Positions 337 to 974 of a stretch of DNA of 64,000 bases are shown piece by piece (within the stretch, counting starts at the first letter, position 1; the number at the start of each line of letters is the position of its first letter). The DNA is from Candidatus Omnitrophota bacterium (GTDB lineage: Bacteria; Omnitrophota; Gorgyraeia; Duberdicusellales; 4484-171), in assembly GCA_020352775.1 (NCBI GenBank), contig CP070684.1:968653-1032652 (forward strand), given 5' to 3'. Under the pieces are notes generated by a model. That model ran no database searches. It had not been told where the DNA came from and saw nothing but the letters and a program-made list of their open reading frames with translations. The translations under genes were made by a program, and so were the position numbers.

Positions 337-400
337 TTTTAAAATTCGTTCTTAGACAAATTGGTATCCCCGGTAGCTCAATGGTAGAGCGGTTGGCTGT

Positions 401-916
401 GCCGAGGGGTGAAAAAGGAGGTGAAATTGGCAAAGCAAGAAAAGCGTCGCTATAAAGACCGACGGCAATACTTAATAGCCGCAGTCCGTAAAAGACGGAA
501 AAAGATACGTGAAATGGCTCTTAAGTATAAAGGTGGTAATTGTGAGCGATGTGGGTATGGTCGTTGCCAGGAAGCTTTAGAGTTTCATCATGCGAGTTCT
601 TCCAAAAAAGATTTTAGTGTTTCTTCCAAAGGTTACACACGCAGCTGGAAGAGGGTAAAGAAAGAATTGGATAAGTGTGTTTTGCTTTGTGCCAATTGTC
701 ACCGAGAGATTCACTCTCAAATTAGCAGCGCTTGCGAGAAATCGCAGGATGAGAAAGCGAGTAAATTCAGGGAAACCCTTGAAGTAAAAGGCCTCAAGGG
801 CAATCCTGAGCCAAGCCCTAAATGGGAAGGTGCAGAGACTAGACACTCGCTACCTAAGTTCGATAAGGATATGGTAAAGGTATAGTCCGACTCTCACAGT
901 AATGTGAGTCAGTTCG
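401..916 (+). mobile_element. Group I intron (IC3-like, Azoarcus/Anabaena tRNA-intron type) with an ORF in the P1 loop
   Basis: - P1: exon 396-400 GCUGU pairs with 725-729 GCAGC, with a U400:G725 wobble at the 5' splice site.
- P10: exon 917-919 UAA pairs with 722-724 UUA.
- P2: hairpin 731-748 with a GAAA loop, directly after the guide sequence as in Azoarcus.
- P3: 756-762 AGCGAGU pairs with 845-851 ACUCGCU.
- Core: 829-858 GGUGCAGAGACUAGAC...CCUAAG and 805-817 CCUGAGCCAAGCC closely match the Azoarcus tRNA-Ile intron core as I recall it.
- The intron ends in G916 (omega-G). Confidence 0.8.
409..885 (+). CDS. HNH-family homing-endonuclease-like protein encoded inside the tRNA intron
   Basis: It has a CxxC...HH...CxxCH zinc/HNH signature (CERCGYGRC..EFHH..CANCHREIH) and a basic N-terminus. 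The SD AGGAGG at 416-421 suggests the true start may be TTG at 427. The HNH domain ends near 715. The remaining ~55 codons run through the ribozyme core and may be fortuitous. Confidence 0.7.
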   Translation: MKKEVKLAKQEKRRYKDRRQYLIAAVRKRRKKIREMALKYKGGNCERCGYGRCQEALEFHHASSSKKDFSVSSKGYTRSWKRVKKELDKCVLLCANCHREIHSQISSACEKSQDEKASKFRETLEVKGLKGNPEPSPKWEGAETRHSLPKFDKDMVKV

Positions 917-950
917 TAACCAATAGGTTGTAGGTTCGAGCCCTACCCGG

Positions 951-974
951 GGAGCCAGTCTTCATGTTTCGAAC
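951..974. repeat. att-like core copy 1: the last 7 nt of tRNA-Asn plus 17 nt downstream
   Basis: GGAGCCAGTCTTCATGTTTCGAAC recurs at 2740-2763 with 1 mismatch. It recurs partially at 3860-3870 and 36856-36865. Confidence 0.75.

Follow-up and report, generated by a model that had tools for sequence, protein, structure and literature searches.

The window analyzed here is a 64-kb (64,000-nucleotide) stretch of a Candidatus Omnitrophota contig, and at positions 367–957 it contains a tRNA-Asn(GUU) gene interrupted by a group I intron, which in turn carries a gene for a putative HNH endonuclease; these features all lie on the forward strand. The 5′ exon (367–400) supplies the 5′ strand of the acceptor stem, the D arm, the 5′ strand of the anticodon stem and the loop nucleotides C32, U33, G34 and U35. 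The 3′ exon (917–957) begins with U36, A37 and A38 and continues through the 3′ strand of the anticodon stem, the variable loop, the T arm and the 3′ strand of the acceptor stem to G73 and CCA. Between them lie the 516 nt of the intron (401–916), which ends in its ωG, G916. Within the intron an open reading frame (ORF) of 152 codons runs from a TTG start at 427 to a TAG at 883–885, and its product is 100% identical to JSW17_05235 (NCBI, Candidatus Omnitrophota metagenome-assembled genome, 1.275-Mb contig). In our reading the locus is very probably an Omnitrophota tRNA-Asn(GUU) gene split between U35 and U36 by a mobile IC3-like group I intron, predicted to be self-splicing, with a putative homing HNH gene in its P1 loop.

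Once ligated, 367–400 and 917–957 form a canonical 75-nt tRNA-Asn(GUU) that has the Asn discriminator, G73, and an encoded CCA, as called by ARAGORN. On the native DNA with introns allowed, the program returns the identical tRNA-Asn and places a 516-nt intron after anticodon nucleotide 35. The first-pass annotation of this DNA had proposed that two halves rejoin into a full tRNA with the anticodon loop CUGU/UAA, and both runs bear this out. With the anticodon GUU and a split between nucleotides 35 and 36, the gene belongs to the 35/36 tRNA-Asn(GUU) class (Asn.4Ug). For the intron to end in G, the junctions must be read as Asn; a reading as tRNA-Thr(CGU) interrupted at 33/34 was rejected because the last intron nucleotide would be U, not G. 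The ligated tRNA is identical to an intron-less metagenomic tRNA-Asn (L104) at 72 of 75 positions. Run in its default mode, with no intron option, ARAGORN finds three tRNAs in the 64-kb window, none of them at 367–957.

The sequence between the exons has the structure of a group I ribozyme. A covariance-model search, a check suggested with the first-pass annotation, gave a significant match to the Rfam family RF00028 (Intron_gpI) at 707–909, with 89 bits against a gathering score of 50 (E = 2e-21), and this is the sole non-tRNA Rfam family matched in the window. The score above the gathering threshold, the U400•G725 wobble together with G916, and a covarying P3–P9 core with a P3/P7 pseudoknot identify the element as a group I intron. 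The helix that Rfam places as 'P1' (711–731) was rejected as a local mis-fit, a pseudo-hairpin. The true P1 pairs the 5′ exon's end, GCUGU (396–400, with U400 at the 5′ splice site), with 725–729 across a loop, L1, of 324 nt (401–724), which holds the Shine-Dalgarno (SD) sequence, the start codon and the conserved part of the HNH gene. The internal guide sequence (722–729) consists of UUA (722–724), the P10 partner of 917–919, and GCAGC (725–729), the 3′ strand of P1.

Covariation was assessed in 25 compact members of the intron family, aligned as 'mini-introns' from which the ORF had been removed, on a hand-drawn structure that includes the P3/P7 pseudoknot and P10. In this alignment 88% of cells are paired, against 31–45% when the partners are slid by 1–3 columns; compensatory changes occur in 30 of 60 pairs, and none of 500 shuffles reached the observed values. 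The window keeps all 63 of the 63 invariant columns. P1 is 98.7% paired, the U•G wobble is present in 25 of 25 relatives and the guide GCAGC is invariant among them; four relatives have the exon GACUGU with an unchanged guide, and P1, effectively 4–6 bp long and invariant, is neutral as covariation evidence. P10 changes from GUUA/UAAC to AUUA/UAAU together with the exon in two relatives (L006 and L068). The P2 hairpin (731–748; 7 bp, GAAA tetraloop at 738–741) is paired in 100% of cells, with compensatory changes at six of its seven pairs.

The catalytic core follows the same pattern. P3 (756–762 with 845–851) encloses, within 756–851, P4 (767–772/804–809), P5 (776–780/796–800), P6 (810–811/830–831 and 816–818/824–826) and the 5′ strand of P7. 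Its central five pairs are conserved, three of them covarying, and its two outermost pairs are not kept in relatives. P4 is 100% paired with three pairs covarying, and P5 and P6 covary too. P7, the guanosine-binding helix (835 and 837–841 with 883–888), encloses P3′ and P8 within 835–888 and is 100% paired in the 25 relatives, five pairs being invariant and one covarying (A-U to U-A). P8 (853–874) includes an 11-nt GAAA-tetraloop receptor motif read from the sequence, CCUAAG (853–858) plus UAUGG (870–874), and its outer pairs are 100% paired; from what is established for IC3 introns such as that of Azoarcus, the GAAA loop of P2 would be expected to dock into this receptor. The P9 hairpin (889–910; GUAA tetraloop at 899–902) is paired in 92% of cells and has compensatory changes at six of eight pairs, with an ambiguous register for the outer four, and no consistent P9.0 pairing was assignable in the window's subtype. 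The P1, P2, P3 and P10 pairings and the ωG drawn in the first-pass annotation are all present in the sequence, with the qualifications that the outer P3 pairs are unconserved and that P10 is supported in 44% of cells.

The core is compact. It measures 192 nt from the guide sequence to ωG, with a gap of 3 nt between P7 and P3′, a gap of 1 nt between P3′ and P8, and no P7.1/P7.2. Its P7-to-P7′ span of 41 nt falls in the short mode of a bimodal family distribution (about 21–58 versus 68–92 nt), the long-span form having an insertion between P7 and P3′. The Azoarcus tRNA-Ile intron is the structural reference for IC3. The best alignments of the window are with published IC3 introns of tRNA-Leu and tRNA-fMet (scores 127–146, 59–65% identity, few gaps); the window scores only 95 against a fourth IC3 reference, which is a tRNA-fMet intron of Omnitrophota, and the other subgroups score 112 (Nitrospirota IA1 tRNA-Asn), 78 (IA3) and 65 (IB3). 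Architecture and alignment support an IC3-like ribozyme. What had been called an IC3 group I intron is, then, a group I intron by RF00028 with a compact core that is IC3-like.

The HNH ORF (427–885) is preceded by its own SD sequence, GGAGG (416–420), read from the sequence. Its conserved domain covers about 445–714, and the tail, 715–882, is translated ribozyme sequence, from P10 and the guide through J8/7. The start at TTG 427 is supported because homologues have ATG at the same position, and an SD-like motif stands ahead of the equivalent start codon in 59 of 66 relatives. Start codons among these 66 are TTG (36), GTG (16) and ATG (14); a preference for TTG and GTG may keep nuclease expression low. 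The window protein has 2137 homologues at E ≤ 1e-3. It carries the signature CxxC...HH...CxxCH..H, and 37 residues are invariant among 30 homologues, including C39, C42, H54, H55, C88, N90, C91, H92 and H96. The ORF is under purifying selection, with dN/dS of 0.07 versus L003, 0.04 versus L002 and 0.11 versus L044, the three relatives with unsaturated dS.

Profile and fold comparisons point in the same direction with modest scores. Pfam HNH matches 20 of 30 relatives at E ≤ 0.01 (best E 1.6e-4), one database relative (P0026) has a precomputed PF01844 match, and the family profile matches the McrA HNH motif (E = 0.008). A comparison with HNH families had been suggested alongside the first-pass annotation, and its outcome is mixed: the relatives and the McrA motif support the assignment, and the window protein itself lies below the Pfam cut-off. 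In an AlphaFold2 model, 10-residue blocks average a pLDDT of 77–92 over residues 11–60 and 71–100, and residues 61–70 average 50. The best Foldseek matches in the PDB are almost all HNH nucleases (Cap5, T4 endonuclease VII, Gme HNH, ZRANB3, Cas9 HNH), at E 0.17–1 and TM 0.2–0.4. The first-pass description of an HNH ORF with its own SD, situated in L1 and running into the ribozyme core, agrees with our reading of the sequence and with the relatives.

The window intron is a member of a large family. A pattern-plus-tblastn scan of one genome per species (GTDB) found 531 loci with an HNH relative, and the family results given here are those of the best 80 (L001–L080). Judged by record titles, the hosts are Omnitrophota, Nitrospirota, Elusimicrobiota, Melainabacteria, Acidobacteriota, Deltaproteobacteria, Patescibacteria, Aerophobetes and others. 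In 78 of the 80 loci intron-aware ARAGORN encloses the ORF in a split tRNA, and for the other two it makes no call; its labels for the 78 are 45 Asn, 30 Thr, 2 Pro and 1 Tyr. The existence of several host tRNAs was rejected, the 33 loci called Thr(UGU/CGU), Pro(CGG) or Tyr(GUA) being boundary-shift artefacts of junction placement. Because all junctions read GGCTGT/...G/TAAYC, for which only the Asn reading leaves a terminal G, all 78 loci are tRNA-Asn(GUU) genes split at 35/36, and a terminal G precedes TAA in 79 of 79 family members. RF00028 scores above its gathering score in 20 of 20 sampled relatives, and the ribozyme sequence profile matches 80 of 80 genome loci.

The layout of the intron is equally uniform. 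The ORF lies in the P1 loop in all 78 readable loci, with the guide and P2 directly after the HNH domain. The guide GCAGC stands 304–398 nt into the intron in 79 of 79 family members and is followed by a hairpin, with a GNRA loop in nearly all. The last catalytic His codon ends 8–17 nt before the guide (8–12 nt in all but two loci), and the stop codon falls 10–253 nt beyond it in 73 of the 75 members with a recognisable ORF. Since the guide, the end of the HNH domain and the stop keep these positions across the family, an ORF in L1 that reads into the core is a family trait. Conservation does not extend to the translated tail, either as a protein feature or in its length; the frame continues simply for lack of a stop codon. 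The close relatives of the window intron differ solely by insertions in the P6 and P8 loops, and the whole family has the look of a single lineage whose peripheral elements vary. A movement of the HNH gene between IC3-like and IA1-like scaffolds is not supported, because in a neighbour-joining tree the HNH domains co-cluster with the ribozyme 3′-end type.

The split gene has transcription signals of its own. A sigma-70-type promoter on the same strand (308–336; TTGACG, a 17-nt spacer and TATAAT, 11 of 12 consensus matches) precedes the 5′ exon, its –35 box overlapping the stop codon of recR (window 305–336), and an intrinsic terminator (981–1010, forward strand; a 9-bp stem with six G-C pairs, then ATTTTTATTT) follows the 3′ exon. 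Upstream lies the 3′ end of recR, and downstream a gene for a BNR-repeat protein on the opposite strand. The order recR–promoter–tRNA-Asn is kept in related contigs with the intron (recR upstream in 14 of 80 loci) and in others without it.

Empty sites exist as well. An uninterrupted junction is present in at least 120 metagenome contigs. A survey for intron-less alleles, as the first-pass annotation had proposed, yielded empty syntenic tRNA-Asn sites in L083 and L095: both have recR directly upstream (69–71% amino-acid identity), the same recR stop with the TTGACG...TATAAT promoter, and an intron-less tRNA-Asn. Of the recR genes compared, that of Omnitrophota SO_2017_LW3_58 (L044) is closest (81% amino-acid identity), yet the tRNA-Asn gene there has a differently built, longer intron of 626 nt with a different 3′ end and a ribozyme of 277 nt, whereas the window's ribozyme has 192 nt. 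The type of intron thus fails to follow the relatedness of the hosts. Near-identical compact intron cores occur in Omnitrophota and in Melainabacteria. Gain and loss through homing explain these patterns better than purely vertical descent would.

The Nitrospirota genome GCA_958295805.1 has a 347-nt tRNA-Asn intron given as 'ORF-less' in Table S5 of Nakagawa, Amikura, Omae & Suzuki (mSystems 2026, PMC13011429), and its pre-guide stretch translates to a fragment resembling a C-terminal HNH (...CADCHRRL...). Such a fragment would have the look of a decayed copy of this endonuclease gene, fitting a homing cycle of gain, decay and loss.

The HNH family is also found in viruses. It occurs on 201 IMG/VR contigs, and the viral results refer to the best 80 of these 201 (examples from L202–L280 are L202 at 2893–3356, L212 at 2839–3318 and L231 at 2974–3367). 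The ribozyme is present in three of the 80 loci; in the other 77 the HNH gene is free-standing within phage tRNA arrays, with no family ribozyme detected. Among the 77 free-standing loci, an intact tRNA-Asn(GUU) is the closest tRNA in 37, and in 23 of them the tRNA-Asn begins no more than 60 nt beyond the stop codon of the HNH gene; an intact tRNA-Asn lies no more than 300 nt away in 47 of the 77. T4 SegB is likewise a free-standing endonuclease gene inside a tRNA cluster (PMC2330249), but SegB is a GIY-YIG enzyme and not a member of the HNH family, and the window's copy is intron-borne and bacterial; trans-homing is described for T4 MobE (PMC2790892). We suggest tentatively, as a possibility somewhat short of an even chance, that a single HNH lineage has specialised on tRNA genes, above all tRNA-Asn, being free-standing in phage arrays, usually beside an intact tRNA-Asn gene, and intron-borne in hundreds of bacterial species of many phyla, in the P1 loop at 35/36. 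If true, the family would form a natural series illustrating how, as has been proposed, an endonuclease gene that stands alone can enter an intron located where its enzyme cuts, and spread from phylum to phylum would be carried by phage tRNA arrays. It would also overturn the published view of tRNA introns bearing homing endonuclease genes (HEGs) as rare and, at 35/36, confined to Patescibacteria.

A model consistent with these data runs as follows. The unit would be transcribed from its own promoter (308–336) to its own terminator (981–1010), and the intron would fold as a compact IC3-like ribozyme in which the 5′ exon's end, GCUGU (396–400), pairs with the guide GCAGC (725–729) across the 324-nt P1 loop. 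Exogenous guanosine would attack after U400, ωG916 would then enter the guanosine site in P7 while UUA (722–724) holds the 3′ exon via P10, and exon ligation would restore the anticodon loop CUGUUAA. Introns at 35/36 of the Asn and Asp tRNAs, one of each kind, self-splice precisely in vitro, and mutation of ωG to C blocks exon ligation in the tested relatives (PMC13011429); by homology to these same-site introns, the window intron is expected to self-splice. The HNH nuclease, with about 100 conserved residues, its own SD and a weak TTG start, would most likely nick or cut intron-less tRNA-Asn genes near the insertion site, and repair from the intron-bearing copy would spread the intron.

Several observations weigh against this model. 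On the RNA side, P1 must form over a 324-nt loop with 5 bp, where most relatives have 6 bp, and P10 has only 3 bp, its 44% support coming only from the window's subtype. The introns tested in vitro are from Patescibacteria and are classed as IA by their authors, in contrast to the compact core of the window, and L046, the sole Patescibacteria locus among the best 80, has a ribozyme that exceeds the window's in length and contains an insertion inside the span of P7. On the protein side, Pfam HNH (PF01844) scores 17.3 bits, below its cut-off of 21.4, so that the HNH assignment is based on motifs together with weak profile and fold matches (best Foldseek E 0.17), and for an enzyme that homes to a specific sequence the conserved protein is very small. 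Finally, ribosomes crossing the guide and the core would unfold the ribozyme on the same RNA, and splicing and translation must be separated.

Some of these points lend themselves to another explanation, in which splicing takes place but the HNH protein has lost, or never had, a homing function, acting instead as a maturase-like folding aid or a general nuclease, while the intron is inherited essentially vertically. The model of the protein of about 100 residues suggests one basic helix and a zinc-bound HNH core, with no separate DNA-binding domain visible, and the matches to Pfam, the McrA motif and Foldseek are weak. The ORF always abuts the guide within 8–17 nt, which could hint at coupling to RNA function, and Nakagawa and colleagues argue that tRNA introns are mostly immobile (PMC13011429). 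We consider this explanation improbable, since the nuclease motifs are under strong purifying selection, intron presence and absence alternate at syntenic recR–tRNA-Asn loci, and the closest host relative (L044) has a different intron variant. A folding aid also sits badly with the in vitro splicing of ORF-less relatives in the absence of protein (PMC13011429), and with the free-standing copies of this HNH family in the tRNA arrays of phages, where there is no ribozyme to assist. ORF-less introns, and apparently ORF-decayed ones, occur at the same site in Nitrospirota and would be expected of a homing cycle. That the locus is a dead, unspliced pseudo-tRNA, Asn codons being decoded by another intact tRNA-Asn gene outside the window, is most improbable: the tRNA search covered 64 kb of the 1.275-Mb contig and leaves room for a second tRNA-Asn gene, but both exons are intact and match an intron-less tRNA-Asn at 72 of 75 positions, the gene comes with its own terminator and a near-consensus promoter, no invariant position of the ribozyme has been lost, and the compensatory changes in the family make sense only if the RNA folds.

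A mobile, self-splicing intron with a homing gene remains the reading that we prefer, and its main added value lies in the size and uniform architecture of the surrounding family, which spans 531 species-level genomes, far beyond a complete-genome survey. Taken by itself the locus contributes little, its kind having been published. There are consequences for annotation, as default tRNA finders miss the gene and intron-aware runs can mis-call its relatives as Thr, Pro or Tyr. Because tRNA finders miss the split gene, this Omnitrophota genome would appear to have no tRNA-Asn and its completeness estimate would be lowered. The ARAGORN mis-labels, at 33 of 78 loci, will affect the tRNA inventories and completeness of the host phyla of the family. 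Since the HNH gene sits in P1, abuts the guide and reads into the ribozyme, the family is a good system for studying how homing-gene translation and ribozyme folding stay apart on one RNA, and also how such introns move between phyla.

Introns of this kind have been described before. Williams (2020; bioRxiv 10.1101/2020.01.27.920355) raised the number of intron-split tRNA classes from the four classical ones to 21, among them 'Asn.4Ug' according to the citing passage in Nakagawa et al. (PMC13011429). The latter authors found 28 introns at 35/36 in 4,934 complete genomes (19 in Patescibacteria, 3 in Nitrospirota, 3 in Cyanobacteriota, and others), of which 25 were classed as IA, the Nitrospirota Asn introns as IA1. 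HNH (PF01844) genes were present in four Patescibacteria tRNA-Asn introns, and among the complete genomes HEG-bearing 35/36 introns occurred only there. Their Table S5 includes an intron of 569 nt from Patescibacteria whose L1 holds a gene of this HNH family, then GCAGCUUCCGCCGGAAAC, and ORF-less Nitrospirota tRNA-Asn introns of 248–347 nt. The first-pass view that an Asn(GUU) host, a 35/36 site and an HNH gene in L1 are unusual is out of date in light of these two studies. Our literature searches on homing genes in P1 loops, and on the gene position of I-Ssp6803I, returned nothing usable.

The Patescibacteria 35/36 tRNA-Asn introns share with the window the host tRNA, the site, the U-1/ωG rule and the HNH family (ALEFHH...TRSW...CxNCHxEIH). 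In the published sequence from GCA_000503835.1, a Patescibacteria example, the ORF likewise lies in L1, and directly after it come GCAGC and a P2 hairpin closed by a GAAA loop. In both groups the tRNA escapes standard tools, and ARAGORN can return Thr(UGU/CGU) at 33/34, in line with the published remark that Thr(UGU) at 33/34 is what ARAGORN and tFind wrongly assign to these genes (PMC13011429). The two differ in phylum, Omnitrophota going unmentioned in the text of PMC13011429 and appearing in the accessible part of its Table S5 only with a tRNA-fMet intron. They differ in the ribozyme, which is compact and lacks a P7–P3′ insertion in the window, in contrast to the mostly IA 35/36 introns of that survey, and in breadth, the HNH gene being found here in 531 species-level genomes of many phyla and there in Patescibacteria only.

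Classical IC3 tRNA introns, those of cyanobacterial tRNA-Leu(UAA) and tRNA-fMet(CAU), have the same P3–P8 order and spacing as the window, the near-identical strings UCAGGGAAACC, GGCAAUCCUGAGCCAAGCC and GGAAGGUGCAGAGACU, the GAAA loop in L2 with the 11-nt receptor in P8, and a GNRA loop on P9. They interrupt other tRNAs at 34/35, 33/34 or 36/37, whereas the window intron is inserted at 35/36 and carries a gene in L1. The Synechocystis tRNA-fMet intron, which encodes I-Ssp6803I, is also a bacterial group I intron in a tRNA anticodon loop with a homing gene, and there as in the window the nuclease would be expected to target the anticodon region of the gene that lacks the intron. The nuclease families differ, being PD-(D/E)XK in tRNA-fMet and LAGLIDADG in tRNA-Arg(CCU) introns (PMC13011429) versus HNH in the window, as do the host tRNA and the site. 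The window intron joins an already published kind, to which it brings an Omnitrophota host and a compact IC3-like core, neither yet reported for that kind.

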